A stretch of DNA of 64,000 nucleotides from an uncultured Gammaproteobacteria bacterium. Lineage in GTDB: Bacteria; Pseudomonadota; Gammaproteobacteria; Steroidobacterales; Steroidobacteraceae. The notes below the pieces were generated by a model. The model was not told where the DNA came from and ran no database searches. It saw nothing but the letters and a program-made list of their open reading frames with translations. Every line of letters starts with the position of its first letter. The first letter of the stretch is position 1. This document shows, in pieces, positions 6,616 to 48,852 of the stretch. Made by a program: the position numbers and the translations under genes. The DNA is taken from contig CAVPNH010000002.1 in the NCBI GenBank assembly GCA_963706755.1, positions 21,660 through 85,659 of the forward strand, given 5' to 3'.

Positions 6616-6627
6616 GGTTCGGCACCG

Positions 6628-11780: not shown

Positions 11781-11807
11781 CGCCGCTCTCGCTCCCCGCG
11801 CCCTGGG

Positions 11808-13374: not shown

Positions 13375-15323
13375 ATGCGCCCCCTTCCCCGCATCGACAG
13401 GCGCCTGGCCTTGATCCTGCTCCGCCAACTGACGCTAGCGCGCGGCGCGCGGCCACTCATCGAGGACGCCAGCCTGCAGATTCACACCGGCTGGCGGGTC
13501 GGCCTCGTCGGCGCGAATGGCAGCGGAAAGTCGAGCCTCTTTGCACTCCTGGCCGGGGAACTGCACGCCGAGAGCGGCGATTGCGAAATTCCGCCCGCCT
13601 GGAGCATCGCCAGCGTCAGCCAGGAGACACCGTCCCTCCCCAGCCCGGCGATCGAATTCGTGCTCGACGGCGATACCGAACTGCGCTCGCGTGGAGCGGG
13701 CACTGCTCGAGGCCGACCGCGATCACGACGGCCACGCACTGGCCGAAGGCCACGCGCGGCTGGACGCGATCAGCGGATACTCGGCGCGCGCACGCGCGGC
13801 TGCGCTGCTCGCGGGGCTCGGGTTCGAGATCGACGGACCTCGAACGGCCCGTCGCGGATTTCTCCGGCGGCTGGCGCATGCGCCTGAATCTCGCCCGCGC
13901 GCTGTCGAGCCGCGCGGACCTCCTGCTGCTGGACGAGCCCACCAACCACCTCGATCTCGACGCCGTCGTCTGGCTCGAACGCTGGCTCGCCAACTGGCGC
14001 GGGACACTGCTGCTCGTGTCCCACGACCGCGACTTCCTCGACGGCTGTGTCTCGCACATCGCCCAGATCGAGTCGCGGCGCCTCACGCTCTACACGGGGA
14101 ACTACTCGGCATTCGAGGAACAGCGGGCAGCGCGCCTCGCCGTGCAGCAGGCGATGTACGAGAAGCAGCAGCGTGAAGTCGCCCACATGGAGGGCTTCAT
14201 CGCACGCTTTCGGGCCAAGGCCAGCAAGGCCCGCCAGGCGCAGAGCCGCCTGAAGGCACTCGACCGCCTGGAACGGATTGCCCCGGCCCACGTCGACGCC
14301 CCGTTCGACTTCGAGTTTCCGGCGCCGGAGCGCTCGCCGGACCCGCTGCTCGCGCTCGCCGACGCGGTGCTCGGTTACCCCGGACGCCCGGTCCTCGACG
14401 ATGTCGAGATGTCGCTCCGGCCCGGCGCACGGCTCGGGCTGCTGGGGCCCAACGGCGCGGGCAAGTCCACGCTGATCAAGGCCATCGCGGGCGTCCTCGC
14501 GCCACTGTCGGGCGGCCGGACCGAGGGCCACGGCCTCAAGATCGGCTACTTCGCGCAGCACCAGCTCGAGCAGTTGCGGCCCGACGAGTCACCGCTGCAG
14601 CACCTCGTGCGCGCCGAGCGGCAGACGCGGGAGCTCGACCTGCGCAGCTACCTCGGCGGCTTCGACTTCCGGGGATCGATGGCGGACGCGCCGACGGGGG
14701 CATTCTCCGGGGGCGAGAAGTCCCGCCTCGCCCTCGCGCTCATCGTGCGGCAGCGGCCCAACCTGCTGCTGCTCGACGAGCCCACGAACCACCTCGACCT
14801 GGAGATGCGCCACGCACTCACGCGGGCGCTGGCCGAGTACGAGGGCAGCCTGGTACTCGTGTCCCACGACCGCGCGCTGCTGCGCACCGTGTGCGACGGC
14901 TTCCTGCTCGTCGCCGATGGCCGGGCGGTGGAGTTTTCCGGCGACGTGGACGATTACCTCGCGTGGCTGGTCGAGCGACGCGCGAGGACCGATGCCGTGC
15001 AACCGGACGCACCTGCCACCCTGGACAGGGAGGCGCGGCGCGCGCAGCGCGAGAGCGCCGGCGCGGATCGGCAGGCACGGCTCGCCCGTCGCCGCCCGCT
15101 CGCGAAAGAGGCCCGCGAGCTCGAGCGCGAGGTCGAGTCACTCGAGGCGGAGAAGCGCGGCCTCGAGGCGCGGCTCGCCGACACGGCCTTCTACTCGGCC
15201 GGAAAGCTGGCCGAGGTGCAGGCGGCGACGCGGCGCTGCACCGAGATCGGACGACGCCTGGAGGAAGCGGAGTCGCGCTGGCTGGAACTGCAGGCCGAGC
15301 TCGAGGCGATCGGCGAGGCCTGA
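13375..15323 (+). pseudogene. yheS: ABC-F ATPase (YheS-like) interrupted by two single-base insertions
   Basis: Three frames join into a near-colinear match to my recollection of E. coli YheS: frame 1 up to FVLDGDTELRS; frame 2 VERALLEADRDHDGHALAEGHARLDAISGYSARARAAALLAGLGFEIDG; frame 0 LERPVADFSGGWRMRLNLARAL... through to the stop at 15323. Extra bases sit at about 13690 and 13838. The start may be ATG 13375 or TTG 13411. Confidence 0.85.
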
Positions 15324-21450: not shown

Positions 21451-21483
21451 TAGCGGAGTTCTGACCGACTCCAGGGCCCTCCC

Positions 21484-22608
21484 GTGCTCAAACCAGATTC
21501 CACGCAACGGCTCGCGATCCGTCCCCTAGTCTGGCCGGCCCTGGCCGTGGCGCTTGCCGCCGTGCTGGTTGCGGGCTGCAGCAACGGCAAGGCCAAGGAC
21601 AAGGACGCGGCCGAGGCCGACAACTCGGTGCCGGTCGAGGTCCAGGCGCTCAGGCGGGCGCCGATGGTCGCCGTGTACTCCGGTACCGCGCCGATCGAGG
21701 CGCACGACGAAGCCGAGGTCGTTGCCAAGGTCGGTGGAGAAGTCCGCCAGATCTTCGTCGAGGAAGGCGACAACGTCACTGCAGGCCAGGTGCTCGCTCG
21801 CCTCGATGGCGACCGCCTGAGGCTAGAACTCGCGCAGACCGACGCGAACCTGCGCAAGCTCGAGCGCGACTACAACCGCCAGCTCGAGCTGAGCGAGAAG
21901 GGCCTGGTCGCCAAGGGCACGGCGGAGAACGCGAAGTTCGACCTCGACGCGCTGCGGGCGGCTTACGACAGCGCGAGGCTCGAACTCTCCTACACGGAGA
22001 TCCGCGCGCCGATCGCGGGCGTCGTCTCGGCGCGGCACATCAAGGTCGGCAACACCATCAAGCCGAACGACCCGACCTTCCGCGTGACGAACCTCGACCC
22101 GCTCGTGGCCTACGTCCACGTGCCCGAGAAGGAGTTCCGCAAGCTCGCCCCGGGGCAGGCGGTGGACGTCGTGGTGGATGCGCTCGGCGGCGAGCACTTC
22201 GCGGCAAGCATCGCGCGGATCAGCCCGACCGTGGATCCCCAGACCGGCACGTTCAGGGCCGAGGTCGAGGTGCCTGACCCCTCGCGCCGCCTGAAGCCTG
22301 GCATGTTTGCGCGCGTCAACGTCGTGTACGAGCGGCGCGACAACGCGCTGCAGCTGCCACGCAGCGCAATCCTCGATGCGGACGGCGAGCAGTCCGTCTA
22401 CGTCGTGGTCGGCGGCAAGGCACAGCAGCAACGCATCGAGACCGGCCTCGTCAACAACGGCTGGATCGAGGTCGTCAAAGGCCTCAAGGGCAGCGAGCGC
22501 GTGGTCGTGGTCGGGCAGGCGGGGCTCAAGTCAGGGACCGCCGTCAAGGTCGTGGACGACTCCGTGCCCGCCGCGGCGCCCGCCGGCGGCACGGCCAAGG
22601 CCGGTTAA
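21484..22608 (+). CDS. RND efflux periplasmic adaptor (membrane fusion protein), lipoprotein
   Basis: 374-aa ORF with lipobox LVAGC and typical HlyD/MFP coiled-coil and beta-barrel sequence. Confidence 0.9.
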   Translation: MLKPDSTQRLAIRPLVWPALAVALAAVLVAGCSNGKAKDKDAAEADNSVPVEVQALRRAPMVAVYSGTAPIEAHDEAEVVAKVGGEVRQIFVEEGDNVTAGQVLARLDGDRLRLELAQTDANLRKLERDYNRQLELSEKGLVAKGTAENAKFDLDALRAAYDSARLELSYTEIRAPIAGVVSARHIKVGNTIKPNDPTFRVTNLDPLVAYVHVPEKEFRKLAPGQAVDVVVDALGGEHFAASIARISPTVDPQTGTFRAEVEVPDPSRRLKPGMFARVNVVYERRDNALQLPRSAILDADGEQSVYVVVGGKAQQQRIETGLVNNGWIEVVKGLKGSERVVVVGQAGLKSGTAVKVVDDSVPAAAPAGGTAKAG

Positions 22609-22644: not shown

Positions 22645-25600
22645 ATGCAGCTGATCGATTTCGCGATCCGCAGACGCGTGACCATCGTCATGTGCACGGT
22701 GGCCATCGCGCTCTTCGGCCTCGTCTCGCTGTCGCGGCTGAAGCTCAACCTCCTTCCCGACCTCTCCTACCCCACGATCACGATCCGCACCGAGCTGCCG
22801 GGCGCGGCGCCGCTCGAGCTCGAGACGCTGGTGACGCGGCCCGTGGAGGAAGCGGTCAGCATCATCCGCAACGTGCGCCAGGTGCGCTCCGTTTCGCGTG
22901 CGGGGCAATCCGACGTGACGCTCGAGTTCGTCTGGGGCACGGACATGGATGTCGCGGGCATCGACGTGCGCGAGAAGCTCGACCTCCTGCAGCTGCCACT
23001 CGAAGCGAAGCGGCCACTGCTGCTGCGTTTCGACCCGTCGAGCGAGCCGGTGCTGCGCCTCGCGTTCCTCGAAACCGGCGACCGGGCGCGCGAGGAGAGC
23101 GTCGAGCGGCTGAAGTCCATGCGACGCTTCGCCGAGGACCGCCTGAAGCCGGACCTCGAGGCGGTCGAGGGCTCGGCGGCGGTCAAGGTGAGCGGCGGCT
23201 ACGAGGACGAGGTGCAGGTCCTCGTGGACCAGCAGAAGCTCGCGCAGCTCGGGCTCTCGATCGACACCGTGACCCGGCGCATCCGCGCCGAAAACGTCAA
23301 CCTCTCCGGCGGCCGGCTCGAGCAGGGCATGCAGCGCTTCCTGGTGCGCACGCTGAATGAGTTCGAGTCCATCGAGCAGATGGCGAACGCGATCATCGCG
23401 ACCCGCGACGGGCAGCCGGTCTACCTCAAGGACGTGGCCAGCGTCACACGGGGTTACAAGGACCGCGAGGCGATCACCCGCGTGGACGGCCGCGAGGCCA
23501 TCGAGCTCGCCGTCTACAAGGAGGGCGACGCGAACACGGTGCTGCTCGCCGAGGGCGTGCAGAAGCGACTCGAGGACCTCAAGAAGAGCCTGCCGGAAGG
23601 CACGGAGGTGCGCACGGTCTACGACCAGTCCACGTTCATCGCGGCGGCCATCGGCGAGGTGAAGAGCGCCGCCCTGATTGGCGGCCTGCTCGCGATCCTG
23701 GTGCTCTACGCGTTCCTCCGGGACGCACGGGCCACGCTCATCAGCGGCATCGCCATCCCGGTCTCGGTCCTGGGTACGTTTGTGCTCATGTACGCCTTCG
23801 ACCTCTCGCTCAACATCATGTCGCTCGGCGGCATCGCGCTCGCCGTCGGCATGCTGGTGGACAACGCCGTCGTGGTGCTCGAGTGCATCGTGCGCAAGCA
23901 GGAACACGGCATGGAACGGGCCGAGGCCGCGCGCCAGGGCACGGCGGAAGTGGCGATGGCGGTCACGGCCGCCACGCTGACTTCGGTCGCGGTCTTCTTC
24001 CCGATGGTGTTCATCACCGGCGTCGCCGGACAGCTCTTCCGCGACCAGTCGCTCACGGTCGACCTTCGCGCTGTCGTTCTCGCTGGTCGTTGCGCTCACG
24101 CTCGCACCGATGCTCGCCGCCGGGAGCGGACACCATATCGGGGACTCGCCCGTGGCGGCCTCGGAACCGCGCAAGCCCAGCCGCATCGAAGTGCTGCTGG
24201 GACGCGTGGCCTCCATGCTGCGCGCGGCGTTCGGCTGGATTGCGCGCGCCTGCGCGCTCGCACTCGCCCCCCTGGTCCGGGTGACGCAGGCGCTGAACCG
24301 CTGGGCCGACGACCGCTACCCCGGTGCGATCCGCTGGGCGCTCGCTCACCCGGCGAAGACGATCGGTTCGGCGGCGGCGCTCTTCGTGCTCACGATCGTC
24401 CTGATCCTGCCGCGGCTCGGCACCGAACTCATCCCGCAGATGTCGCAGGGCGAATTCAACGTGGACTTGCGGCTGCCGCCGGGCACGCCGCTCGAGCAGA
24501 CCGACCGCTCGATGCGGGCCGCGCAGCGGGCCAGCGCGAAGCTGGGTGACGTCGCCCTCGCCTACTCCGTTGCCGGCACCGGCAACCGCCTCGACGCCAA
24601 CCCGGTGGACGCAGGCGAGAACACCGGCCGGCTCAGCATCACCCTGCAGAAGGGATCGCGGCGTGCGGACGAGGACGCCGCCATGGCCGGAATGCGGAAG
24701 AGTCTCGACGCCCTGCCGGGCCTGCAGTACCGCTTCAGCCGGCCGGCACTCTTCAGCATGTCCACGCCCCTCGAGGTCGTCGTGTCCGGCTATGACCTCG
24801 AGCGCCTCAAGGCCGCGGCCGGGCAGGTGCGCGCGAAGATGCTGGCGGACGAGCACTTTGCAGACGTGAAGACCACCGTCGAGGCCGGGAACCCGGAGAT
24901 CCAGGTGGTGTTCGACCAGGAGCGGGCGGCCCAGCTGGGGCTCGCGGTGCGCGACATCGCCGACCGACTGGTGAACAGCGTGCGCGGCGAGGTGGCGACC
25001 CGCTACAAGCTCCGCGACAAGCAGATCGACGTGCTGGTGCGGAGCGTGGACACCCGCGCGGCGTCCATCGAGGAGGTTCGCAACCTGATCGTGAACCCGG
25101 GCAGCGAGCACCCGGTGACGCTGGGTTCGGTCGCCGACGTACAACTCGCGGTGGGCCCGGCCGAGGTGCGCCGAGTTGCGCAGGAACGCGTGGCCGTGGT
25201 CTCGGCGAACCTGGCGAAGGGCGACCTCGGCTCCGCAGTGGTCGCCCTGCAGCGCATCGTGTCGGAAGTCCAGTTGCCCGTCGGCACGACGGCGTTCCTG
25301 TCCGGCCAGAGCGAGGAGATGACGGACTCGTTCCGCTCACTGCAGTTCGTATTGCTGCTCGCGATCTTCCTCGTCTACCTGGTCATGGCCTCGCAGTTCG
25401 AGTCGCTGATCCACCCGTTCGTCATCCTGCTCACCATCCCGCTCGCGATCACGGGCGCGGTGTGGGCGCTGTGGCTCACGGGCACGACGGTCAACGTCGT
25501 GGCCTACATCGGCCTCATCATGCTGACCGGCATCGTGGTGAACCAGTCCATCGTGCTCATCGACGCGGTGAACCAGGCGCGCGGGCGCGGACTCTCGAAG

Positions 25601-25870
25601 CACGACGCGATCGTCGAGGCAGGCAGGCTGCGCCTGCGCCCGATCCTGATCACCAAGCTCACGACGATCCTCGGGCTGATGCCGATGGCGCTGGGCCTCG
25701 GTGAGGGTGCCGAGGTGCGCGCGCCCATGGCCATCACCGTGATCGGCGGCGTGCTGCTCACGACCTTCCTGACGCTGCTCGTGATCCCGGTCGTGTATGC
25801 GGTGCTCGACCGGAAGACTTACGTGGCACCCGAGGCGTCCGCTGCCGAGGCTGCCGCCACCACGGGCTGA
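22645..25870 (+). pseudogene. RND efflux permease (AcrB/MdtB-like) with one single-base insertion
   Basis: ORF 22645..24549 is RND-like up to ...GQLFRDQSLTV. ORF 24110..25870 continues in the next frame with TFALSFSLVVALTLAPML.... The extra base is at about 24061. The joined length is about 1075 aa. Confidence 0.85.
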
Positions 25871-25877
25871 GGACCAC

Positions 25878-28800
25878 ATGCGCCACACCCGCCTCGCGCT
25901 CAACCGGCCCGTCACGACCGTGATGGTGTTCCTGGCCGTCGTGGCGGTCGGGCTCATCTCGGGCCGGCTGCTCCGCCTCGAGTCCATGCCGGACATCATG
26001 TTTCCGGGCATGTTCGTCACCATCCCCTACCCTGGATCCACGCCCGAGGAAATCGAGCAGACCGTGGTTCGACCGGTCGAGGAGGCGCTGGCCACGCTTT
26101 CAGGGATCGAGGAACTCCAGGCGAGCGCCCAGTCCGACCAGGCGACGTTCCGCATCCTCTTCAGCCTGGACCGCGACCTTGATGCGGCTGCATTCGACGT
26201 CCGGACCAAGCTCGACTCGATCCGCAGCCAGCTTCCGGCCGCAGCCGACCGCATGCTCATGCAGACGTTCAGCCCGTCCGACCAGCCGATCGTCATCATC
26301 CGCATCTCCGCCGAGCACGACCTGACCGACCAGTACGAGATGCTGGAGAAATACCTGCAGCGCCCGATCCAGCGCCTCGACGGCGTGGCTCGGGTCGACC
26401 TGAGGGGCGTGCAGCCACGCGAGGTCCGCGTCCTCGCGGACCCCACCCGCCTCGCAACCTACGGCGTGGACGTGCGGGACCTGCGCGCACTGCTCGTGGC
26501 AAGCAATTTCTCGGTGGGTGCCGGCGAGCTCACCGAGAACGGCCAGCGCTACACCGTGCGGCCGATCGGGGAGTTCCGCGACATCCTGGACGTGCGCAAC
26601 CTCCTCCTCCGCCCCGGCGTGCGCGTCGGCGACGTGGCCGACGTCGAGCTGGTCGCTCCCGAGCTGACCGAGGGACGGCACATGGGCGGACGCAAGGCGG
26701 TCGGCATCGACGTCTTCAAGTCCACCCAGGCCAACGTCGTCGAGGTCGCCGACAAGGTCGTCGCCGCGGTCAACGACGCGCGCAATGTCCCGCAGCTGCA
26801 GGGCATCCAGATCCTGGTGGTGGAAAACCAGGCCGACGACATCCGCGACTCGCTGAAGGAGCTGCGCAATGCGGGGCTGGTCGGTGCGGCGCTCGGTTTC
26901 CTCATGCTGCTCGTCTTCCTGCGGCACCTGCCGACGACGGTCATCGTGGGCGTGACCGTGCCGATCTCGCTGCTGGTCACGCTGGGCGCGATGTATTTCC
27001 TCGGCCTCACGCTCAACATCCTGACGATGATGGGCATGATGCTGGCGATCGGCATGCTGGTGGACAACTCGGTCGTGATCACCGAGAGCATCTTCCGCCG
27101 CCGGCAGCTCCTGCCGGGACACCCGGTCGAAGCAACACTCGCCGGGGTGACGGAAGTCGGCGTCGCCACCCTCGCGGGCACGGTCTGCACGACCATCGTG
27201 TTCCTGCCGCTGGTGTTCGGCGAAAAGAACCAGATGTCGATCTTCCTGGTGCACGTCGCCGTGCCGATCGTCGTGGCGATGCTCGCATCGCTCGTGGTCG
27301 CGCAGACGCTGATACCGATGCTGGCGGCACGCATGTCCGCGCCGCCGCCGGTGTCCGAGGCGTCGTGGTTCGGCCGGCTGCAGGCGCAGTATCAGCGTTC
27401 ACTTGGCTGGGCGCTGGATCACCGGAAGCTGATGGCGCTCTTCACCGTGCTCATTCTCGTCTCGCCGGTGCCGCTCTTCGCGCTGAAGCTCGCCAAGTTC
27501 GACCCGTTCCCGCAGGAGGCGACCCGCACGCTGGGGCTCGCCTATCACCTCGAAGGGTCATACCCCATCGACCAGGTCGGAAAGGCGGTCCAGCGCGTCG
27601 AGGCCTACCTTGAGGCCAACAAGGAGAAATTCGAGATCGAGACCTACTACACGTACTGGGCGACGGATGAAGCATTCACCCGCATCTACCTGAAGCCCAA
27701 GGAGCAGGCAAAGCTCCCGGCCGCGCAGCTCATGCAGATGATCAGCGACGGCATGCCCGAGATCATCATCGGCAAGCCGAGCTTCCGCTTCGACGACAGC
27801 ACGAGTGGCTCCACGGCGTTCAGCCTGCAGCTTTCCGGGGAGTCCACGGAACGCCTGGCCGAGATCTCACAGGAGGTCGCGCACCGCCTCTCCTCGGTCC
27901 CGGGCCTCGAGGCCGTGCGCTCGGAAGCCAGCACGGGCTCGCAGGAGGTGCAGGTCGTCGTGAACCGCGACCGGGCATCGCAACTCGGCCTCACGACCCA
28001 GGAAATCGCCATGACCGTGGCCGGCGCCATGCGCGGCGACCGGCTGCCGGAACTGCGCACCACCGACCGCGAATTGACCATGCGACTCGCGTTCCGTGAG
28101 TCCGACCGCCAGTCGGTGGAGGACCTCGCCCGCGTGCCGGTGATGCTCGCGAACGGCGGACGCACGGAACTCGGCGCCGTCGCGGACTTCGTGGTGAAGC
28201 CGAGCGACCGGGAGATCACCCGCACCAACCGCCTGACGTCCGTCAACATCAACGCCAATCTCGCGAAGGGCACGACCATGGAGGAGGCGCGCAAGCGCGT
28301 CGAGCCGATCATGGATGCCTATCCGCTGCCGCCCGGCTACGCCTGGAAGTTCGGGCGCGGGTTCGATGAGAACGACAAGGCCGTGCAGATCATGGTGCAG
28401 AACCTGCTGCTGGCCGTGGCGCTCATCTTCCTCGTCATGGCTTCGCTCTTCGAGTCGACGCTGTACCCGCTATCGATCATCACCTCGATCCTGTTCGCCA
28501 TCGTCGGATCGATCTGGTTCATGACCGTCACCGGCACGACCATCACCATGATGGCGATGATCGGTTTCATGGTGCTGATCGGCGTGGTGGTGAACATCGG
28601 CATCGTGCTCATCGCGCACGTGATCGACCTGCGCGAGGCGGGACTGCCCCGCCGCGAGGCCATCCTGCAGGCCGGCCGCGACCGCCTCCGGCCCATCATG
28701 ATGACCGTGCTCACGACCCTGCTCGGACTCACGCCGCTCGCCATCGGCGACGCGCACATCGGCGGCATGGGCGGCACCGGGCCGTCCTACCAGCCCATGG

Positions 28801-28985
28801 CGCGCGCGATCATGGGCGGGTTGGGGTTCTCCGCGGTCGTGTCGCTGCTGATCGTGCCGATGTTCTACGTCTGGTTCGATGACCTGAACCTGTGGCGCAG
28901 GCGTGTGTTTTCCAGGGCTTCACCGACGGACAAGGATTCTCCGTCCTTCACACGTCCGGCCGAATTACCGCAGGCCGTGGAGTAA
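25878..28985 (+). CDS. RND efflux permease (AcrB/MdtC-like)
   Basis: ATG 25878 inside ORF 25797..28985 (MRHTRLALNRPVTTVMVFLAVVAVG...). About 1035 aa with 12-TM RND architecture. Confidence 0.9.
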   Translation: MRHTRLALNRPVTTVMVFLAVVAVGLISGRLLRLESMPDIMFPGMFVTIPYPGSTPEEIEQTVVRPVEEALATLSGIEELQASAQSDQATFRILFSLDRDLDAAAFDVRTKLDSIRSQLPAAADRMLMQTFSPSDQPIVIIRISAEHDLTDQYEMLEKYLQRPIQRLDGVARVDLRGVQPREVRVLADPTRLATYGVDVRDLRALLVASNFSVGAGELTENGQRYTVRPIGEFRDILDVRNLLLRPGVRVGDVADVELVAPELTEGRHMGGRKAVGIDVFKSTQANVVEVADKVVAAVNDARNVPQLQGIQILVVENQADDIRDSLKELRNAGLVGAALGFLMLLVFLRHLPTTVIVGVTVPISLLVTLGAMYFLGLTLNILTMMGMMLAIGMLVDNSVVITESIFRRRQLLPGHPVEATLAGVTEVGVATLAGTVCTTIVFLPLVFGEKNQMSIFLVHVAVPIVVAMLASLVVAQTLIPMLAARMSAPPPVSEASWFGRLQAQYQRSLGWALDHRKLMALFTVLILVSPVPLFALKLAKFDPFPQEATRTLGLAYHLEGSYPIDQVGKAVQRVEAYLEANKEKFEIETYYTYWATDEAFTRIYLKPKEQAKLPAAQLMQMISDGMPEIIIGKPSFRFDDSTSGSTAFSLQLSGESTERLAEISQEVAHRLSSVPGLEAVRSEASTGSQEVQVVVNRDRASQLGLTTQEIAMTVAGAMRGDRLPELRTTDRELTMRLAFRESDRQSVEDLARVPVMLANGGRTELGAVADFVVKPSDREITRTNRLTSVNINANLAKGTTMEEARKRVEPIMDAYPLPPGYAWKFGRGFDENDKAVQIMVQNLLLAVALIFLVMASLFESTLYPLSIITSILFAIVGSIWFMTVTGTTITMMAMIGFMVLIGVVVNIGIVLIAHVIDLREAGLPRREAILQAGRDRLRPIMMTVLTTLLGLTPLAIGDAHIGGMGGTGPSYQPMARAIMGGLGFSAVVSLLIVPMFYVWFDDLNLWRRRVFSRASPTDKDSPSFTRPAELPQAVE

Positions 28986-29070: not shown

Positions 29071-29520
29071 CTACTTGAGGCAGACAACGAGTCGCGCCGA
29101 GTGACTGCGCCAGTTGATGGGTATGACGATCGGCTGACTGCCGATTGGCCGCCGTGGCTCTTCGCCTCCAGCCGTCAGCACGGTCGGAACGGAGATGTGG
29201 AACTGGTTACCGAAGTCCCGGCGCGCATTACCGGCGATCGTGTTCGCCACCTCCCCGACGATGTCGCACAGGTTTTCGTGCGATACATCGCTCTCGTTCA
29301 TCCTCATCAGCAGGACGGTGAGCATGCCGCGTGGCGCCGTGAAGTAGACGATTCCGTCGCGACGCCCGGAGACGGAGATCACGCCGGTGTATTCGTACAA
29401 TTCCGTCGCGTCGTGAGACATCAGGTAGGGCGATCCGACCGACGCCGGCTGCTGTGCGGCGACCTCGAAGTAGCGGGTCGTTCCGTACAGGAAGGTCCGA
29501 ATTGCCTGTTCGTCGAGCAT
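29071..29520 (-). CDS. CheX-type chemotaxis phosphatase
   Basis: Inner ATG 29520 of ORF 29071..29703, 149 aa (MLDEQAIRTFLYGTTRYFEV...GEVANTIAGNAR...). Resembles the CheX/CheC-like fold family. Confidence 0.7.
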   Translation of the reverse strand: MLDEQAIRTFLYGTTRYFEVAAQQPASVGSPYLMSHDATELYEYTGVISVSGRRDGIVYFTAPRGMLTVLLMRMNESDVSHENLCDIVGEVANTIAGNARRDFGNQFHISVPTVLTAGGEEPRRPIGSQPIVIPINWRSHSARLVVCLK

Positions 29521-29525
29521 CGTGC

Positions 29526-29897
29526 TCAGGCTCCGCCCAGAAGTTCCTGGAGCGCCTCGTTGAGCTGGCGATCGGTGAACGGCTTGTTCAGGAAGCCGTT
29601 GGCACCCTTCTCCATCGCCTCGACCGCCGTGGCCTTGTCCGCCAGCGCCGACACGATGAGGATCAGTACGCCGGGTTTCATCCGCACGAGCTCCTCGACG
29701 CACTCGATGCCGTTCATGTTGGGCATCGTGATATCCATCGTGACGACGTCGGGGTCGGTTTCGATGAACCGCTCGATCGCCTCGCGGCCGTCGCGTGCGG
29801 TGCCGACGACCTGCAGCTGGGCCAGCCGCTGTGACCGCTCGATGCGCCGACGCATGACATTCGAGTCGTCGACGATCAGCAGCCGCAGCGGCGGCAT
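29526..29897 (-). CDS. Single-domain CheY-like response regulator
   Basis: ORF 29526..29930, with likely start at ATG 29897 (MPPLRLLIVDDS). Receiver residues are present: DD, acceptor D in VVTMDITMPNMNG, S in IVSAL, K in LNKPF. Confidence 0.85.
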   Translation of the reverse strand: MPPLRLLIVDDSNVMRRRIERSQRLAQLQVVGTARDGREAIERFIETDPDVVTMDITMPNMNGIECVEELVRMKPGVLILIVSALADKATAVEAMEKGANGFLNKPFTDRQLNEALQELLGGA

Positions 29898-29946
29898 GAG
29901 GCAGGGCACCTCATGGGCAAAGCCGCTCATGACGCGCCGACCCCGC

Positions 29947-32085
29947 TCACGCGACGGCGTCCTGCTGCTCGTCCGTGCCAGGGAGCAGGATGCGGAACCG
30001 GGTCAGCTTGCCGGGCACTGTCGCGACCGCAATCCTGCCGCCGGCTTCCCGGACGGACTTCCACACGATGTCGAGGCCGACGCCGCGCCCGGCGTCGAGG
30101 TCGTCTCCGCCGTAGGTCGAGATCCCGGCCTTGAAGATCAGGCCGAGCGTCGACCTGTCGTCGAGCGTTTGCGCTCGCACCTCGTCGACGAGGCCGAGCG
30201 CGAGCGCCTTCTCCTTCACGAGGTCGGCCCGTATGCCGGCCCCGTCATCCTGGAAAACGAGCTCGTACCCGTGCTCCCGGGCCTTGAACTCCACCTGCAG
30301 CAGACCCGCCGGGTTCTTGCCTGCGCTGTTTCGCAGCTCGACATCCTCGATGCCGTGTACCACCGCATTGCGGACGAACTGGACCACGACATTCTGCACG
30401 ACGCGGCGGTAATCACCGGGTACCAGGTCGAGTCCGGTCGTGACGAAGAGGATTTTCTTGCCGTGATTCGCGGCCATGCGGGCAGCGAGCGCTTCGAGCG
30501 TGTCGGACAGCCTGCGCGCCGGAGGCGGCGCTGGCGAAAGGGCCGGGAAAGTGGCCGGGGACGGGTCCTCCGTCGGCGTCGATGGCGCGAGCAACGATGC
30601 AGCCCGCAGGTTGTCGAGCCGGCCGAGCAGCTCCTGTATCGCCCTCAGGTGTGCGAACAGGTCGTCGAGACGCACGACGAGCGGCAGGAAATCGTTTCCC
30701 GACAGTTCCGCGCGCTCACGCAGTTCCTTGAGCCTGTCTTCGAAGGCATGGGCACGGCTCTCGACCGTAGCGACCCCGAGCGTCGCGGCGTCGCCCTTGA
30801 TCTTGTGCATCTCGCGGAACAGTGAGTCGACCTTCTTGCGGAAATCGGTGTCGCTGCGCGCAGGGACTTTCAGCACGCTGTTGACCATCCGCAACGAGGC
30901 ATTGCAGTCCGACAGGAACGTCTGCAGCTGGCCAGGTTCGACCTGCAGCATCGCAAGCAGCAGGTCCATCTGGGCGTCGGCGGAATCCTGCGACTGCTTG
31001 ACCTCCCGGGCCAGCAGCACCCGCGACGTGACATCGCTGACGGACACGAGGATCTGTCGTACGGCGCCGTCCTGCTTGACCCGGTGGAAGTCGAACTCGA
31101 GGTAACGGGTGTCCCGCCCGGCATTGCCGTGGTCGAAGGTCACCTCGACCTCCGCCAGCGGGTTGATGCTCTTGATCAGGTTTTCGTTGGCTCTCTCACC
31201 CCAGAGCAGCTTCACGTACTTGGACGCGGTCTCGAGCGTCGCTTCGGGGACGATCCCGCTGAGCAGGTCCTCGAAGGTCAGTCCGTCGAAGGAGTCGCGC
31301 CGGAAGAGCGCCGCGAGAGCAGCCGAGTGCGTCTTCCCGATGCGGAAGTCCCTGTCAATCAGGCAAAGGCCTTCCTTCACGGTCCCCAGGATGTCGCGAG
31401 TCTGCTGTCGCGCGTTCTGCGCCGCCCGTTCCTCGCGGGCTTTCAGCCACTGGAAACGTGCGACCAACGCCAGCAGAAGGCCGGCGAAGATCATGCCGGC
31501 GATCATCAGGCGCCGCAGCGTCGCGGCACCCGTCACTGCTTCACCCTCGAGGCGGGAGCCAATGGTCGCCAGGCCGCTGACCAGGCCTGCCGCGTTCTGC
31601 CGTCCGTAGGCGAGGGCATCGCGCGTGTCGGCCATCAGCCGCTGGCCACTGACGTTGAGCTGTGTGCCGGTTCGATCGGAATCGCGGTAGGGAATCCCGC
31701 TGAAGGCGGTCACGGGCTCGAGCAGGGCGCGATACTGCGTCCAGACCTTCTCGATGGGCTGCAGCTCCTTGGAGCCCGGTGCAGCCGTCCGGCGAAGTTC
31801 GGCGATGGCCAGGTCGTACTCGTGTTTCGAGGTGGCCAGGTCGGTGACCGCGTCACCGACGTAACTGCCCGACCTCAGGCGGTCCCGGATGCCCGCCAGC
31901 GAGCGCACCATGGCCTCGGGCTGGCTGCGCTGCTCGCTCACGAGCTTCAGCGCAGCCGTGCTCTGGGACAACTCGTTGGCAAGCCGGTAGCCCGGCAGCA
32001 GCACCGTGGCGATGAAGGCCACGAGCAGTGCCAGGAATCCTGCCGGCACGGCAAGGCCCTTGAATCGATGAATGAAGTCGCTCAT
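29947..32085 (-). CDS. Membrane-bound sensor fused to a CheA-type kinase core (Hpt + P4 ATPase), lacking a CheW-like P5 domain
   Basis: ATG 32085 (AGGA 10 nt upstream) in ORF 29947..32127. Two TM helices flank a periplasmic domain of about 165 aa. Hpt site is FREMHKIKGDAATLG. CheA-like P4 boxes are VRNAVVHGIE, FQDDGAGI and GRGVGLDIV. The protein ends right after the ATPase domain. Confidence 0.8.
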   Translation of the reverse strand: MSDFIHRFKGLAVPAGFLALLVAFIATVLLPGYRLANELSQSTAALKLVSEQRSQPEAMVRSLAGIRDRLRSGSYVGDAVTDLATSKHEYDLAIAELRRTAAPGSKELQPIEKVWTQYRALLEPVTAFSGIPYRDSDRTGTQLNVSGQRLMADTRDALAYGRQNAAGLVSGLATIGSRLEGEAVTGAATLRRLMIAGMIFAGLLLALVARFQWLKAREERAAQNARQQTRDILGTVKEGLCLIDRDFRIGKTHSAALAALFRRDSFDGLTFEDLLSGIVPEATLETASKYVKLLWGERANENLIKSINPLAEVEVTFDHGNAGRDTRYLEFDFHRVKQDGAVRQILVSVSDVTSRVLLAREVKQSQDSADAQMDLLLAMLQVEPGQLQTFLSDCNASLRMVNSVLKVPARSDTDFRKKVDSLFREMHKIKGDAATLGVATVESRAHAFEDRLKELRERAELSGNDFLPLVVRLDDLFAHLRAIQELLGRLDNLRAASLLAPSTPTEDPSPATFPALSPAPPPARRLSDTLEALAARMAANHGKKILFVTTGLDLVPGDYRRVVQNVVVQFVRNAVVHGIEDVELRNSAGKNPAGLLQVEFKAREHGYELVFQDDGAGIRADLVKEKALALGLVDEVRAQTLDDRSTLGLIFKAGISTYGGDDLDAGRGVGLDIVWKSVREAGGRIAVATVPGKLTRFRILLPGTDEQQDAVA

Positions 32086-32123
32086 GAAGGCTGGTCCTTT
32101 CTTGCGCGTACGCGCGGCCGGGG

Positions 32124-34223
32124 TCATCGCCGGGCTCCGTCGCCGGGTTTGAATACGACTGCAATCACCGTTGTGGATTCGACTGCCCGGCCCTCGACCC
32201 GCGGCGCCTTGAAGCGCCAGCGACTGACGGCCGCCAGGACCGACTTGTCGAATACGCCGGTCGGAGTCGAGGACACGATCTCCGTACCCTGGACGCGCCC
32301 GTCCGCGTCGACGGCGACTCGCACCCGGACCTCGCCGCTGAGGCCCTTCTCCATCGCTCCCGTCGGATAGGCGGGCGCCAGGTAGTACGTGCGCTCGAGT
32401 GAAGAAGATTGGAGCGGTGCGGGGGACGGCTGCCGCGCCGCGGCGAGGCGTCGCTCGAGCCCGTCTAACCGAGTGGGTTCGACGCCGAGCCCGCGCGCTG
32501 CATCCAGGTATCGCTGGGTTATTTCAAATTCGCCCGCTGCCAGTGCGCTGCTTGCCCGCTCAACCAGTTGCGACGAGAGCGCACGGGCCTGATCCGCAGT
32601 TGCCGCGCCCGCGGGGTCTTTCGTGCGCAACGAGCCGTAGTAGAACACCGCGCTGTCCTGGGTCGGGTCGATCAGCTTTCCTTCGCTGATTCGCTGCTGC
32701 ACCAGCATGGCCAGGCGCTCCGGTTCGGAAAGCGACGGCGGAGTCGGCGTCACGTCGACGCGAGTGGATGCCACCGGCACGGCGGCGAGGCCGGTTGCTG
32801 TCGTCACGCCAAGAGCACGCGCTTCCGCCAGCCAGCGTTCCATCTCGACGGTCTGCCGCTGCGCACCTGCAGTCTGCGCGCGCTGCAGGAATGCCTGCCC
32901 GAGCTTGCGGCTCGCTGCAGCCTGCGTACGCGTGTTCGGCGCCAGCTGGCTCAGTTGCGCCAGGTATTCCCTGGCGCTGTCCCCGGCGGGCTCAATGAGC
33001 CTGCCTTCCGCGATTCGGGCGTACACGAGGCCCGCGAGCTGGTTGACCCGCGCGCCGCCCTGCCGGCGGGTGATCTCGTCGCGCCAGTAGGTCGTGCGGT
33101 CGGCCGGCAACGATCGCGCCTGCGCAGCCTGCCGCACGAGCTGGCTCGCACGATCGGTCCTGCCCGCATCGAGGGCCGCGGCGATCTGTCCTTCGACGAT
33201 GCGGGTTGCGGCGGACTGGACTTTCGGGTCGTCGGGTCGCACGCGCGCGAGCTGAACGACCGTGGTTGCTGCGTCGTCGAGCCGCCGTTCGGCGAGCGCC
33301 GACTGCAGACGTTCGTCCAGTACTGCGGCAACGCGGTCCAGCCCCTCGCGCGCCTCCCCGTTGCCCGGCTCCTGCGCAAGGACCGATCGGTAGTAGAGAA
33401 GCGCACTGTCGGAGTCGGGTTCCACATAGCGGCGCTCGAGAAACGCCGTTGCGGCCTTATCCAGCAGGTCTTCGACCGATCCGTGCTCGATGAGATCCGG
33501 CACGGGACTCGCCGCAACTGGCGCGGGGCGCGGGGCGACCGCGGCGGCCACGGGCTTCGGAACGGTGTCCTGCCCTGCGTGGTCCAGCAGGAACCAGGTC
33601 GCTGACATGCCCAGCACGACCAGGCCGACCATTCCGGGTACCAGCCACCGCGGCGTTCGCGGCCTGGCGGGACGCGCGGTCGCGACCGGCTCGAGCCACG
33701 GCACCGACTCGGCGGGCTGCGATGCGATGACTTGCCTGGCGGCCGGCTGAGCGTCGGCTTTCGGTGCGGACACGACGGCCCGCGAGAGCGCCTCCTCCCG
33801 GGCTCCTGCGAGCACAGCCGCGGTCTTGCCGGTCTCGACCGGAATGGGCAGCACCGCAAATGCCGCCGATCGCCGGATCGCGTGCGCTATGTCAGGTGAC
33901 TGCGATGCCGGCGCGAATACGACGACGACACCGGAGTCGGAGAACGACTGCAATCGGTCTACCGCGCTGCCTGGATCCGCGGCCTCCCGCGCGTCGAGTA
34001 GAAAGACCTGGGCATGGGCGGCATCCACGTGCTCGCGAGCTGCGTCGACGGAATCCGCGAGCCGGATGCCGGTTTCGCCGTCGAGCTCCCGACCGACCTG
34101 CTCGAGCAGCGCATCGTCGCGGGTGACCGCGATGACGTCGACGCGGGACGTCGGAGCCGATTGAGCACCTGGGACGAGCGCAGGCGCCGGATGTGCAAGA
34201 GCGTGAATGGGCGTCGCGGCCAC
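32124..34223 (-). CDS. Receiver-like domain / TM / helical-repeat / TonB C-terminal domain protein
   Basis: GTG 34223, 6 nt after AAGGAG, inside ORF 32124..35183; 699 aa. N-terminal receiver-like pattern, then a TM helix (WLVPGMVGLVVLGMSATWFLL). Three repeats of R(Y/L)(V/I)(E/D)P..DSA..Y(Y/L). The C-terminus (YPTGAMEKGLSGEVRVRVAVDADGRVQGTEIVSSTPTGVFDKSVLAAVSRWRFKAP) is TonB-C-like. Confidence 0.75.
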   Translation of the reverse strand: MAATPIHALAHPAPALVPGAQSAPTSRVDVIAVTRDDALLEQVGRELDGETGIRLADSVDAAREHVDAAHAQVFLLDAREAADPGSAVDRLQSFSDSGVVVVFAPASQSPDIAHAIRRSAAFAVLPIPVETGKTAAVLAGAREEALSRAVVSAPKADAQPAARQVIASQPAESVPWLEPVATARPARPRTPRWLVPGMVGLVVLGMSATWFLLDHAGQDTVPKPVAAAVAPRPAPVAASPVPDLIEHGSVEDLLDKAATAFLERRYVEPDSDSALLYYRSVLAQEPGNGEAREGLDRVAAVLDERLQSALAERRLDDAATTVVQLARVRPDDPKVQSAATRIVEGQIAAALDAGRTDRASQLVRQAAQARSLPADRTTYWRDEITRRQGGARVNQLAGLVYARIAEGRLIEPAGDSAREYLAQLSQLAPNTRTQAAASRKLGQAFLQRAQTAGAQRQTVEMERWLAEARALGVTTATGLAAVPVASTRVDVTPTPPSLSEPERLAMLVQQRISEGKLIDPTQDSAVFYYGSLRTKDPAGAATADQARALSSQLVERASSALAAGEFEITQRYLDAARGLGVEPTRLDGLERRLAAARQPSPAPLQSSSLERTYYLAPAYPTGAMEKGLSGEVRVRVAVDADGRVQGTEIVSSTPTGVFDKSVLAAVSRWRFKAPRVEGRAVESTTVIAVVFKPGDGARR

Positions 34224-34423: not shown

Positions 34424-35461
34424 TCAGCGCAGCAGCACGCGGTAGATTTCGAAGTACTCTTCCAGCAGCAGGTTGGTGGCGGGCGCGCCGCCCTGCGCCG
34501 CCGCGTCCGGCGCGTGGACACTGTCCTGGGTCGGAACGGCGTCGGATTCGTCCCGGTATAACGCGGTGCGCCGCAACCGGTCCGTCCGCCCCTTGATGTC
34601 CACCAGGTCCACGGCCTGCTTTTCGAGTTCGCCGACCGACACCGCGACCTTCGCGAGCAGGGCCTCGCACTGCTCCGGCGCGCCGTAGTTCGACTCGTAC
34701 ACACGCCGCAGCGTCGTCTGTCGTGCGAGGTCGGCGAGTCCGTCCGCGGCCAGCCGTCCGTAGAGCCATTCGGCGCATGCGATCACCGCCAGGTTCACCG
34801 CGCGCCGCCCTTCCACGCTCAGGGATTCGAATGCGGGCGGCGGCTCCGCCTCGACCTCGTGCCGCCGGTCGCCCAGGTCCGTCACGACGGTAAGCGCAGC
34901 TTCGACGCGACCCGCGCGAATCGCGATGGCTTCCTCGAGCCGGCGTCGGCGGAAGTGATTCCAGAACCCACCCAGCGAGGTGAGCTGCTGGCGTGCGAGC
35001 TTCTGCTCGGCCTGCAGCTGGTCGGCCAGGACCCGCGCCTCGACCAGTTCGCGGTCCACGTCCGCGAGGCGGGCGCGTTTCGCACGGTCGAACTCCGCCA
35101 GCTGCTGGCGGCGCTCGCGATCCTTCTGCTGCTGCGCGAGATCGCCCGAGAACTTCTCGAGGCGCTGCGAGGCCGTGCGCCACAGCCCCTTCAGCTGGAA
35201 ATAGACCAGGCTCTTGCGACCCTCCTCCGGGCGGCCGAGGTAGGCCTCGAGGGTCGCAAGCTGTTCCTCGACCCGCATGGTCGCGCCTTCCTGGAGCTTG
35301 AGCCGGTCGAGCAGGCGATGCCGATCGTCATCGAGCGCGCCCAGTTCCTTCTTGAGCTCCGCACGATTGCGAAACAGCGCAACCATGCGCTCGTCCTCGG
35401 TCGACGGTCTCCGCCCGGACAGGCGCTGGATCAGTCGGTGCAGGTCGTCACGCAGGTTCAT
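34424..35461 (-). CDS. Hypothetical coiled-coil protein
   Basis: 345-aa ORF with coding-like composition and long heptad-like E/R/Q/L-rich stretches. The start overlaps the upstream DUF1249 gene by 14 nt. No family recognised. Confidence 0.65.
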   Translation of the reverse strand: MNLRDDLHRLIQRLSGRRPSTEDERMVALFRNRAELKKELGALDDDRHRLLDRLKLQEGATMRVEEQLATLEAYLGRPEEGRKSLVYFQLKGLWRTASQRLEKFSGDLAQQQKDRERRQQLAEFDRAKRARLADVDRELVEARVLADQLQAEQKLARQQLTSLGGFWNHFRRRRLEEAIAIRAGRVEAALTVVTDLGDRRHEVEAEPPPAFESLSVEGRRAVNLAVIACAEWLYGRLAADGLADLARQTTLRRVYESNYGAPEQCEALLAKVAVSVGELEKQAVDLVDIKGRTDRLRRTALYRDESDAVPTQDSVHAPDAAAQGGAPATNLLLEEYFEIYRVLLR

Positions 35462-47340: not shown

Positions 47341-48852
47341 TCAGGCGGCCCTGCGGCGCGGGGCCGCGCTCTTTGCTTTGACCCTGGCCTTGGCCTTCGC
47401 CTTCCCCCGCTTCGCCCGCCCCTTGCGACCGGCCGACAGCCGGCTGGCGAGTTCGAGGTATTCCTGGAAGGACTCGCGGATGCAGAGCGCGAAGAATTCC
47501 GGGTCGGGAATCTGCTCGCGGCACGACGTGGGCGAGATGATGACCCTGCCGTCGTAGCTCGTCACGGCGAATACGAGCCCCATGCCGTCTGAGATCGGCA
47601 TGATTGCCGAGAAATACGTCATGCGCGCGCCATTGAGATAGAGGGGTATCGACGGCCCGGGCACGTTCGTCACCGTGCAGCTCGCGAGCGGCGCACGCTG
47701 CCCGACGCCGAGCGCCGACCCGGCGAGCAGGCGGGCTGAAATCGCGAGCGTCGCGGCGGGCGCGTGCTTCGTGACGTCGGTGAGTTCCTTCGCGCCGACC
47801 GCCTGCCCGATCTCCTCGGCACTCGAAGTGTGCTTGCGTATCGAACGCAGACGCCGCACCGGGTCCTCCAGCTCCGTACCGAGCGGCACGCGCAACATGC
47901 TGATGCCGCTCGCGGCAGCCACGCCGCTGTCCGCGTTGCGGATCGACACCGGCGCGATCGAGACCAGGCTCGGCCCGGGCAGTTCGTCGTGCGTCAGGAG
48001 ATAGCGGCGCAGCGCCCCGCCGCACACCGCCAGCACCGCGTCGTTGATGGTCGCGCCCGGCACCAGCGCGCGGATCCTCTTGAACTCGTCGAGCGTGAAG
48101 CGCCGCGACTCGTACACGCGGTGCGGCGAGACCTCCGAGTTGAAGCGGGTGACCGGCAGCCGATCCGGATGCAACCATGCGTCGCGGAGCGTTCCGAACA
48201 CCACCGGCGCCAACCTGCGCACCACCCGGGTCAGCGGTGCGGCGACCATCAGCGGCTGCACGAGGTTGTGCAGGGCCGCGCGGGCGAGCAGCGAGCCCGT
48301 CCCGGGCGGGGACTCCGGGAACCACGGTTCGGGCGGCTCCGGATGCGGCGGCAGCACCGTCGTGTCGTGCAGGAGCGTCGTGATCTCCGCGCCGCCCTTC
48401 ACGTCGATGGCGGCGTGGTGGATCTTGGCGAGCACCGCGAAGCTGTCGGGAGGCAGGTCGAGGAACGTGTCGAGGCCCTCGACGAGGTACAGCTCCCACA
48501 AGGGCCTGGAGAGATCCAGCGGCCGCGCGTGTATGCGCGAGGCCTGGATGCAGAACTGCCGCCAGTCGCCGGGCTTCGGCAGCGATATGTGGCGCACGTG
48601 GTACTCGAGGTCGAAAACCTCGTCCTCGATCCAGTAGGGGTAGTCGATCTCGAGCGGGACGCGCAGCAGTTTCTGCCGGAAGATGGGCGACAGGTGCAGC
48701 CGGCTTTCGATGTGCTTCAGCAGGCCCTTGAACCGGACCCGGCCCCCGGGGGCCGTCGAGGGGTCGTAGATGTAGACCAGGGTGATGTTTGAATTGGCGT
48801 GGCCGCGCTCCGCGTACACGAATCGGGCATCTTCACCGCGCAATTGGCGCAT
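47341..48852 (-). CDS. WS/DGAT-family acyltransferase (wax ester synthase/diacylglycerol acyltransferase) with variant active-site motif and basic tail
   Basis: ORF 47341..49065 with likely start ATG 48852 (MRQLRGEDARFVY) or 48900. Motif is HHAAIDV (canonical HHxxxDG). C-terminal tail is GRKGRAKRGKAKAKARVKAKSAAPRRRAA. Confidence 0.8.
   Translation of the reverse strand: MRQLRGEDARFVYAERGHANSNITLVYIYDPSTAPGGRVRFKGLLKHIESRLHLSPIFRQKLLRVPLEIDYPYWIEDEVFDLEYHVRHISLPKPGDWRQFCIQASRIHARPLDLSRPLWELYLVEGLDTFLDLPPDSFAVLAKIHHAAIDVKGGAEITTLLHDTTVLPPHPEPPEPWFPESPPGTGSLLARAALHNLVQPLMVAAPLTRVVRRLAPVVFGTLRDAWLHPDRLPVTRFNSEVSPHRVYESRRFTLDEFKRIRALVPGATINDAVLAVCGGALRRYLLTHDELPGPSLVSIAPVSIRNADSGVAAASGISMLRVPLGTELEDPVRRLRSIRKHTSSAEEIGQAVGAKELTDVTKHAPAATLAISARLLAGSALGVGQRAPLASCTVTNVPGPSIPLYLNGARMTYFSAIMPISDGMGLVFAVTSYDGRVIISPTSCREQIPDPEFFALCIRESFQEYLELASRLSAGRKGRAKRGKAKAKARVKAKSAAPRRRAA

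Follow-up and report, generated by a model that had tools for sequence, protein, structure and literature searches.

The closest described relatives of the system reported here belong to two-component or chemosensory signalling and to TonB-like envelope proteins, both of them known, and the system is a variant on these themes. It consists of four co-directional genes encoding, in order, a TonB-like membrane protein, a membrane sensor kinase, a single-domain CheY and a CheX-type phosphatase, on the minus strand of a 64,000-nucleotide stretch of DNA (hereafter the window) from an uncultured soil gammaproteobacterium of the family Steroidobacteraceae (assembly GCA_963706755.1, contig CAVPNH010000002.1, positions 21,660 to 85,659 of the forward strand). 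With CheA-CheY-CheX pathways in which CheX is of the Thermotoga/Borrelia type it shares a histidine phosphotransfer (Hpt) domain with the H-x-x-K-G motif, an ATPase (P4) domain aligning best to CheA, the complete five-residue active site in CheY and the D-x3-E-x2-N motif in CheX, features that imply fast phosphorylation and dephosphorylation kinetics. It differs from these pathways in a kinase that lacks the P3 and P5 domains and carries instead a PilJ-type sensor in the periplasm, held between two transmembrane (TM) helices, and a PAS-like domain; sensing lies within the kinase itself, and the window holds no gene for a methyl-accepting chemotaxis protein (MCP), CheW, CheR or CheB.

For the TonB-like protein, the sole well-studied parallel is found in myxobacterial gliding. 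GltJ comprises a cytosolic regulatory domain, one TM helix, a flexible periplasmic region and a TonB C-terminal domain (TonB-C), and its cytosolic part reads MglA-GTP and AglZ (PMC11135422). The likeness to GltJ (AgmX) and GltG of the Myxococcus xanthus Agl-Glt system is one of overall plan only, a cytosolic domain followed by a TM helix, a periplasmic region and TonB-C. The cytosolic domain is of the ZnR-GYF type there and a receiver-fold pseudo-receiver here, the disordered periplasmic linker of GltJ contrasts with folded TPR-like repeats, and the partner system here is a CheA-type kinase with CheY and CheX, no Agl or Glt genes being present in the 64-kb window. Classical TonB proteins (Escherichia coli TonB, Pseudomonas aeruginosa TonB1) have the same TonB-fold C-terminal domain and N-in, C-out single-pass topology, but the protein described here has a cytoplasmic domain of about 150 aa, a TM helix placed after it and devoid of the conserved His/Ser motif, and TPR-like repeats in place of the Pro-rich rod, and is not linked to exbBD. 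By analogy, it appears to resemble GltJ in plan rather than a classical, ExbBD-energised TonB. A TonB paralogue linked to a chemosensory, motility-related system is known in P. aeruginosa, where TonB3 is encoded beside pilGHIJK-chpA; TonB3 is short and is not known to have a receiver-like domain in the cytoplasm or to share an operon with a CheA-type kinase, and GltJ is better documented as an analogue than tonB3/pilG.

The cytoplasmic domain has its own parallels in the N-terminal domains of TadZ/CpaE and KaiA and in pseudo-receivers of the FrzS type, which likewise combine a (βα)5 fold with the loss of some of the five catalytic residues; here, in contrast, a TM helix and a TonB-C module in the periplasm are attached to the fold, and both the second acidic residue (DD2) and the acceptor Asp are kept. 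The literature covered brought up no characterised counterpart for TonB combined with CheX, CheA, Hpt or a pseudo-receiver, for a receiver with TonB C-terminal output, or for CheA-like kinases without P5, in agreement with an earlier note on this DNA that had presented the module as a candidate for an undescribed one. We tentatively interpret the four genes as a self-contained, chemotaxis-derived phosphorelay whose output is the TonB-like protein, acting as an inside-out envelope effector, a reading that we place slightly below an even chance.

Conservation of the four-gene block

The gene coordinates (Table 1) and the gaps of 38 nt between genes 1 and 2, 16 nt between genes 2 and 3 (49 nt from an alternative internal start) and 5 nt between genes 3 and 4 agree with those first proposed, as does the domain anatomy of the four proteins, for which the Pfam families Hpt, HATPase_c, Response_reg, CheX and TonB_C were all matched. 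The window has a G+C content of about 68%, and all four open reading frames (ORFs) at 29071-34223 show coding-type G+C at third codon positions (GC3). The GTG start of gene 1 yields an N-terminus, MAATP..., that agrees with the annotated starts of its homologues. Given the short gaps, and since a promoter and terminator scan (otherwise uninformative) revealed no terminator-like site on the coding strand within the intergenic gaps of the four genes, the genes are likely co-transcribed as one transcription unit.

Table 1. Genes and protein domains of the four-gene block (positions are those of the window)
Feature	Position	Strand	Basis
Gene 1, TonB-like protein (699 aa)	32124-34223	minus	ORF; GTG start
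Gene 1, cytoplasmic receiver-fold pseudo-receiver, residues 27-152	33768-34145	minus	AlphaFold2, Foldseek, profile vs PDB
Gene 1, single TM helix, residues 194-212, N-terminal side Arg-rich	33588-33644	minus	hydropathy; AlphaFold2 helix 194-215
Gene 1, periplasmic TPR-like repeats, residues 250-597	32433-33476	minus	AlphaFold2, Foldseek, weak Pfam TPR_19
Gene 1, TonB C-terminal domain, residues 617-692	32148-32375	minus	Pfam TonB_C, TIGR01352, Foldseek
Gene 2, membrane sensor kinase (712 aa)	29947-32085	minus	ORF; CheA-type P1 + P4, no P3/P5
Gene 2, periplasmic sensor loop, residues 30-192	31510-31998	minus	hydropathy; between TM1 and TM2
Gene 2, cytoplasmic PAS-like domain, residues 239-356	31018-31371	minus	weak PAS_4, invariant residues
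Gene 2, Hpt/P1-like domain, residues 387-482; His427 codon 30805-30807	30640-30927	minus	Pfam Hpt, CheA P1 alignment
Gene 2, CheA-type ATPase (P4), residues 537-704	29974-30477	minus	phmmer vs PDB, NCBIfam CheA models
Gene 3, single-domain CheY-type response regulator (134 aa)	29526-29930	minus	ORF; Pfam Response_reg
Gene 4, predicted CheX-type CheY-P phosphatase (149 aa)	29071-29520	minus	ORF; Pfam CheX

More than 285 homologues of the TonB-like protein were found, most of them full-length. A synteny survey restricted to one genome per species comprised 39 loci with the protein, all from metagenome-assembled genomes (MAGs) of soil and groundwater labelled Steroidobacteraceae or uncultured Gammaproteobacteria or Proteobacteria, and none from an isolate. 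The kinase, CheY and CheX genes follow directly downstream, on the same strand and in the same order, in every locus with sufficient flanking sequence (about 37 of the 39; tblastn), with identity to the window proteins reaching down to 37-38% for the TonB-like protein and ranging over 71-93% for CheY and 63-85% for CheX. All-against-all clustering of the flanking ORFs across the 39 loci disclosed no fifth conserved gene, the next family occurring in 9 loci only; neither ExbBD, TonB-dependent receptors, motility genes nor MCP/CheW genes are conserved near the block by this measure, and the window's own upstream genes were found in no related locus. Recurring in about 37 independent loci, the four-gene arrangement is not due to chance, and its being kept together while the surroundings change is good evidence of a functional linkage. 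The module singled out in the earlier note is thus a conserved neighbourhood of related genomes.

These observations bear on the idea that the TonB-like gene is functionally unrelated to the other three, encoding a variant TonB that serves outer-membrane uptake and simply accompanies them in this lineage. The C-terminal domain is that of an ordinary TonB, and the kinase-CheY-CheX trio is found alone elsewhere, which would suit such an explanation. However, the four genes are adjacent in about 37 loci, with very short gaps and no other conserved neighbour, the cytoplasmic domain has a signalling fold, the TM helix is devoid of the conserved His/Ser motif with no ExbBD nearby, and distant relatives of the protein likewise adjoin signalling genes, all of which makes mere co-travelling very improbable.

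A sensor kinase on a CheA core

Hydropathy places the two TM helices of the kinase at residues 11-29 and 193-211, on either side of a periplasmic loop of about 163 aa. In the cytoplasmic part, Pfam recognises Hpt (E 1e-9) and, at residues 563-702, HATPase_c (E 1e-9). The best PDB matches of the ATPase are P4 domains of CheA (phmmer, E from 2e-21 to 5e-19), including that of Thermotoga maritima and, as the strongest, residues 343-508 of E. coli CheA (E 2e-21), while residues 388-477 align with the P1 domain (E. coli residues 10-98), HKIKGD standing opposite HSIKGG. NCBIfam CheA models match the P4 region only, and Pfam finds neither H-kinase_dim (P3) nor CheW (P5) in the window kinase or in any of 60 sampled representatives of its family. 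Since the spacer between Hpt and P4 amounts to about 55 residues, mostly of Pro/Ala-rich linker, and the C-terminus lies only 8 residues past the P4-aligned stretch, the kinase is devoid of P2, P3 and P5.

CheA has been defined by four invariably co-occurring core domains, with HATPase_c and CheW as the diagnostic pair (PMC10782961). Lacking P3 and the CheW-like P5, the kinase is not a CheA by that definition; what it shares with CheA is the catalytic core of P1 and P4, on which a sensor kinase has been built. The initial description of a CheA-type kinase without P5 therefore stands as regards the CheA-type P1 and P4 and the missing CheW domain, and falls as regards membership in CheA proper. 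The phospho-acceptor His427, Lys430 and the N, G1 and G2 boxes do not vary among the 60 representatives, which contain HATPase_c in all cases and Hpt in 56. The loop of the window kinase has no Pfam score for PilJ, a domain that occupies the equivalent region in 28 of the 60. The PAS-like region matches PAS_4 weakly, below the cutoff (E 0.015), yet G239, S254, N308, P309 and F333 are invariant across the representatives, and the names given to relatives of the kinase at JGI include "PAS domain-containing protein".

The two small proteins are canonical in their motifs. CheY matches Response_reg over residues 18-127 (E 9e-29), and its DD, D, S and K active-site residues are all present and invariant in 30 loci. 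The product of gene 4 matches CheX over residues 44-135 (E 1e-17) and is a predicted CheY-P phosphatase, its catalytic D-x3-E-x2-N motif (DIVGEVAN) being kept in 29 loci with the D, E and N invariant.

The kinase family is far wider than the set of four-gene loci. A search of 1.84 billion cluster representatives returned 1148 matches at E ≤ 1e-30, some of which may be ordinary CheAs aligned through P4 only; many of the matches are of about 700 aa, align end to end and are 27-48% identical to the window kinase. Kinases at 36% and 43% identity have a TonB_C protein of 737-744 aa encoded upstream and CheY and CheX downstream, whereas at 27-34% identity the kinase has CheY and CheX alongside but no TonB-like gene. 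Because the trio also occurs without the TonB-like gene, it is to be seen as an ancestral, widespread and free-standing unit to which the TonB-like gene is a clade-specific addition, and the TonB-like protein, in the earlier note the only candidate output besides CheY, is not the output that defines the module. One such trio, with a kinase of 32% identity (locus L082, 3883-13375), is wedged between phoB-phoR and phoU-pstBACS, a placement that hints at phosphate status as a possible cue for some of these kinases. P. aeruginosa PA5362-5364, located by phoU, was considered as a possible further trio and dropped; for PA5364 the only listing is that of an orphan regulator without an assigned function. 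No paper describing either the trio or the quartet was found, and the trio family is apparently unstudied.

As a separate observation, one of the 60 kinase representatives carries a full Ammonium_transp domain (E 1.6e-118) fused to the Hpt and CheA-type ATPase core.

A membrane protein joining a pseudo-receiver to TonB-C

The N-terminal domain of the TonB-like protein has no match to Response_reg in Pfam and no receiver match in NCBIfam. The conclusion that it is not a receiver, drawn from these sequence models alone, was overturned by structure prediction and a profile search against PDB, both based on an alignment of 35 homologous N-terminal domains. The AlphaFold2 model is a (βα)5 fold with a predicted local distance difference test score (pLDDT) above 90 over residues 28-152 and a predicted template-modelling score of 0.77. 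Its top Foldseek matches in PDB are all receivers (3kcn, E 1e-5; DctD, PhoB, HupR), and further structural matches include the atypical receivers of TadZ (4lda) and CpaE (4dn6) and the pseudo-receiver of KaiA (1m2e). The alignment profile in turn retrieves 3kcn from the PDB sequences (E 9.5e-4), placing D37 at the acidic pair, D77 at the phospho-acceptor, A104 at the Thr/Ser position, I127 at the Lys position and P128 at the cis-Pro that follows it. The receiver-like pattern read from the sequence in the earlier note is thereby upheld at the level of fold, with no support from Pfam Response_reg, and no membership at the sequence level in a family of known pseudo-receivers was found, again in the absence of a Pfam match.

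A census of the active site in 42 homologues shows how unevenly these residues are retained. The DD2 position is Asp in all 42, 38 members have Asp as the acceptor and 4, forming a subclade, have Glu instead, and the DD1 position is more variable, with Asp in 24, Ser in 14, Arg in 3 and Asn in 1. The Thr/Ser position is Ala in 41 and Thr in 1, and the Lys position is occupied by Ile, Val, Leu or Thr and never by Lys, followed by Pro in all 42. An acidic pocket and putative acceptor Asp that are kept and a Lys that is lost, as already read from the window sequence, are therefore general features of the family. By definition, a pseudo-receiver is a receiver without any one of the five residues (Bourret and colleagues, bioRxiv 10.1101/2025.06.23.661182). 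The domain thus has the (βα)5 fold of receivers and not their full set of DD, D, T/S and K, and is a pseudo-receiver, even though it retains the acceptor Asp, because Thr/Ser and Lys are lost. Beyond the pocket, invariant residues fall in α1 (L40, G44, L47, G49) and in β5-α5 (F122, A123, L125, P128, A136, G140, E144, R148), faces that are recognised interaction surfaces of receivers (bioRxiv 10.1101/2025.06.23.661182).

The loss of Lys and Thr in all or nearly all members, together with the change from Asp to Glu in a subclade, favours partner binding over phosphotransfer. It is conceivable nevertheless that the domain is a working, perhaps inefficient phospho-acceptor, and that Hpt phosphorylates both CheY and Asp77 as CheA serves CheY and CheB. 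The TonB-like protein would then be either a phosphate sink or a genuine response regulator, anchored in the membrane and with TonB-C as its output. The invariant DD2 Asp and the nearly invariant acceptor are consistent with this, as is the finding that receivers with T or K substituted can in some cases still be phosphorylated (bioRxiv 10.1101/2025.06.23.661182); an out-group relative that keeps the Lys and another locus where a canonical receiver precedes a related periplasmic module (both described below) point the same way. Yet Lys is missing from 42 of 42 members and Thr/Ser from 41, the Glu of four members is not phosphorylatable, DD1 is often Ser, Arg or Asn, and Pfam gives the domain no receiver score. 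On a reading of the sequences, moreover, α1 of the pseudo-receiver (DALLEQVGRELD) is unlike α1 of the cognate CheY (SNVMRRRIERSQ), a dissimilarity that renders a shared Hpt specificity unlikely. Taken together, we regard phosphotransfer to Asp77 as quite unlikely.

The remainder of the protein was modelled at full length from a 42-sequence alignment (pLDDT 82.8). The receiver fold is followed by a disordered linker, a TM helix, a second disordered linker rich in Pro and Ala, well-predicted blocks of helical repeats at residues 250-470 and 500-597 and a β-rich C-terminal domain at 605-695, giving a single-pass protein with its N-terminus inside and its C-terminus outside. The repeats contain three copies of the motif "(R)I..G+L.EP..DSA..Y(L/Y)", with invariant P, D, S and A columns; Foldseek likens them to TPR superhelices, and Pfam TPR_19 matches residues 271-342 weakly (E 2e-4). 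The C-terminal domain is recognised by TonB_C (E 4e-21) and TIGR01352 (E 4e-19), superimposes on solved TonB C-terminal domains with TM-scores of 0.8-0.88 (6i97_D, TMt 0.86 and root-mean-square deviation 1.3 Å; 2gsk_B, TMt 0.88) and is 28-32% identical to them, including chains complexed with TonB-dependent transporters. The AgmX/PglI C-terminal model of NCBIfam matches the protein weakly, below its cutoff (26 bits against 40). In E. coli TonB, a His/Ser motif of the TM helix (SHLS) couples the protein to ExbB/ExbD. No conserved His/Ser motif occurs in the homologue TM segments examined, Trp210 being the sole near-invariant residue, and with no ExbB/ExbD genes in the window or conserved near its relatives, the designation of the protein as an energy transducer in the earlier note is not sustained.

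Distant relatives show the same plan in other signalling contexts. A 669-aa protein (locus L033, 7983-11289), 28% identical over its whole length, has the receiver-like, TM, TPR and TonB_C regions in the same order, and its N-terminal domain retains the receiver Lys (YRFLHKPV). Its gene is followed by one for a fusion of a receiver with a Ser/Thr protein kinase and preceded by GspA-like (AAA_22 and PG_binding_1) and T2SSB genes. In a second locus (L040, 4730-9317) a gene for a classical histidine kinase (DAHL-HisKA-HATPase) is followed directly by two more. The next (6560-7942) encodes 460 aa in which an acidic linker joins a canonical receiver to a second, receiver-like domain; the last (7962-9317) begins 20 nt on, in a different frame, and its 451-aa product has the TM-TPR-TonB_C layout. 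These two are split genes or else parts of a single gene that a frameshift interrupts in this long-read MAG assembly. This locus was considered as a "Rosetta stone", as its second receiver-like domain is in register with the window pseudo-receiver, and was set aside: hhalign gave a probability of 6.6% and BLASTP was not significant, so that the likeness is suggestive only. The periplasmic TM-TPR-TonB_C module does recur beside phospho-signalling genes.

The pseudo-receiver itself was found neither alone nor in other architectures, a profile search having returned short proteins only. The two of these that lie on long contigs are frameshift-fragmented TonB-like genes of long-read MAGs, with kinase, CheY and CheX downstream. 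In several such assemblies the TonB-like and kinase genes are cut into two to five frame-shifted pieces (L080, 8001-12227; L081, 8001-12668; also L003, L006, L014 and L034), and the fragments enter protein databases as receiver-like entries of 150-260 aa that only seem to "stand alone".

Direction of signalling and biological meaning

Under the interpretation of the block as a phosphorelay with an envelope output, the kinase has inputs of its own, a periplasmic helical sensor of the PilJ/NarX type, whose fold suggests small anions such as nitrate as possible ligands, and a cytoplasmic PAS-like domain, in place of the P3 and P5 domains that tie a true CheA to receptor and CheW arrays. From what is known of the protein families, the CheA-type ATPase should phosphorylate His427 in the kinase's own Hpt, from which the single-domain CheY, a canonical one, should take over the phosphoryl group; CheX should remove it quickly, making the signal fast and reversible. 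In the Steroidobacteraceae-like clade, the trio would have acquired a membrane protein that monitors the pathway by means of its cytoplasmic pseudo-receiver. Most likely, CheY-P or the Hpt domain of the kinase would dock on the α1 and β5-α5 surfaces of the latter, which are invariant. From there the signal may cross the inner membrane to the TPR-like arm and the TonB C-terminal domain, which could engage an outer-membrane partner bearing a TonB box, or the cell wall. An output role is favoured since the kinase already has inputs, since the catalytic Lys and Thr of the pseudo-receiver are gone and the acceptor is Glu in some members, and since relatives of the TonB-like protein sit downstream of other kinases.

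Several points weigh against this reading. The contact of the pseudo-receiver with CheY, Hpt or the kinase is putative, and neither an outer-membrane partner, a TonB-box protein nor a motor (ExbBD, TolQR or AglRQS) was found in the window or conserved in relatives. As the trio occurs elsewhere without the TonB-like gene and works there without it, CheY must act on something else in those genomes, and possibly here as well. DD2 and Asp77, retained and nearly invariant, may instead point to real phosphorylation, the signal could run in either direction, as output or as input, and all members come from uncultured MAGs.

The direction could in particular be the reverse, with the TonB-like protein serving as an input or a scaffold. 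Its periplasmic arm would then monitor the periplasm or the outer membrane, for instance the exposed TonB box of a ligand-loaded transporter, and its pseudo-receiver would dock on the Hpt or P4 domain of the kinase, tuning its activity or positioning it in the cell, and so would substitute for the receptor and CheW coupling that the kinase lacks. A kinase without P3 and P5, and a TonB-like gene that opens the operon in strict linkage with the kinase gene, are consistent with such a role. So is the invariant α1, the element by which receivers contact Hpt and DHp (dimerization and histidine phosphotransfer) helices in established complexes, and the structural neighbours TadZ and CpaE are themselves atypical receivers of pilus-assembly proteins. 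The kinase, however, already carries a periplasmic sensor and a PAS-like domain, its relatives do without the TonB-like protein, and no transporter gene is linked to the block in the window or in related loci, so an input or scaffold function appears somewhat unlikely.

A Pfam scan of 30 further coding-like ORFs across the 64 kb found no MCP, CheW, ExbB/ExbD, TonB-dependent receptor, flagellar or pilus genes, in keeping with the absence of MCP and CheW genes reported earlier, and an anti-phage defence role was considered and rejected, with zero PADLOC matches. Downstream, the block meets a convergent resistance-nodulation-division (RND) transporter gene; upstream of gene 1, a 200-nt gap is followed by an unrelated gene for a 345-aa protein (34424-35461, minus strand). 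The latter has no Pfam, NCBIfam or PADLOC match, is absent near the block in all related loci examined, and is rich in charged residues (Arg, Glu) as well as Leu and Ala, possibly forming a coiled coil. An AcrB-like RND gene at 22645-25870 (plus strand) apparently lies in two overlapping frames (22645-24549 and 24110-25870), the first of which turns into low-complexity junk beyond about 470 aa, so that the gene is either a pseudogene with a frameshift or an artefact of assembly. An intact RND gene follows at 25797-28985, and a gene for an HlyD-type adaptor is located at 21454-22608. Two ORFs with coding-like GC3, at 7981-9450 (plus strand, 489 aa) and 11808-13481 (minus strand, 557 aa), flank a molybdopterin oxidoreductase gene (9537-11807) and have no Pfam match at E ≤ 1e-4. 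Finally, the longest ORFs of a divergent pair of wax-ester synthase/DGAT genes (47341-49089, minus strand; 48776-50383, plus strand) overlap by about 300 nt at their 5' ends, and the true starts are probably further downstream.

The trio brings to light a large, apparently unstudied family of kinases that combine the CheA core of P1 and P4 with periplasmic and PAS-like sensing of their own and always travel with CheY and CheX. This family blurs the accepted line between chemosensory and ordinary two-component signalling, and raises the question of what a fast CheY/CheX switch acts on when there is no receptor array. For the members that have acquired it, the receiver-fold-TM-TPR-TonB-C protein offers a testable candidate route from a cytoplasmic phospho-signal to the outer membrane. 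It is possible, if doubtful, that membrane proteins joining a receiver or pseudo-receiver to TPR repeats and TonB-C form an unrecognised class of two-component output that signals outward to an outer-membrane partner, driven in relatives by Ser/Thr or classical histidine kinases and here by a CheW-independent CheA-type kinase with the speed of CheY and CheX, thus allowing rapid inside-out control of the envelope. If confirmed, the proposed route to the outer membrane would extend the known outputs of response regulators by a further kind and the known uses of the TonB C-terminal domain by another.

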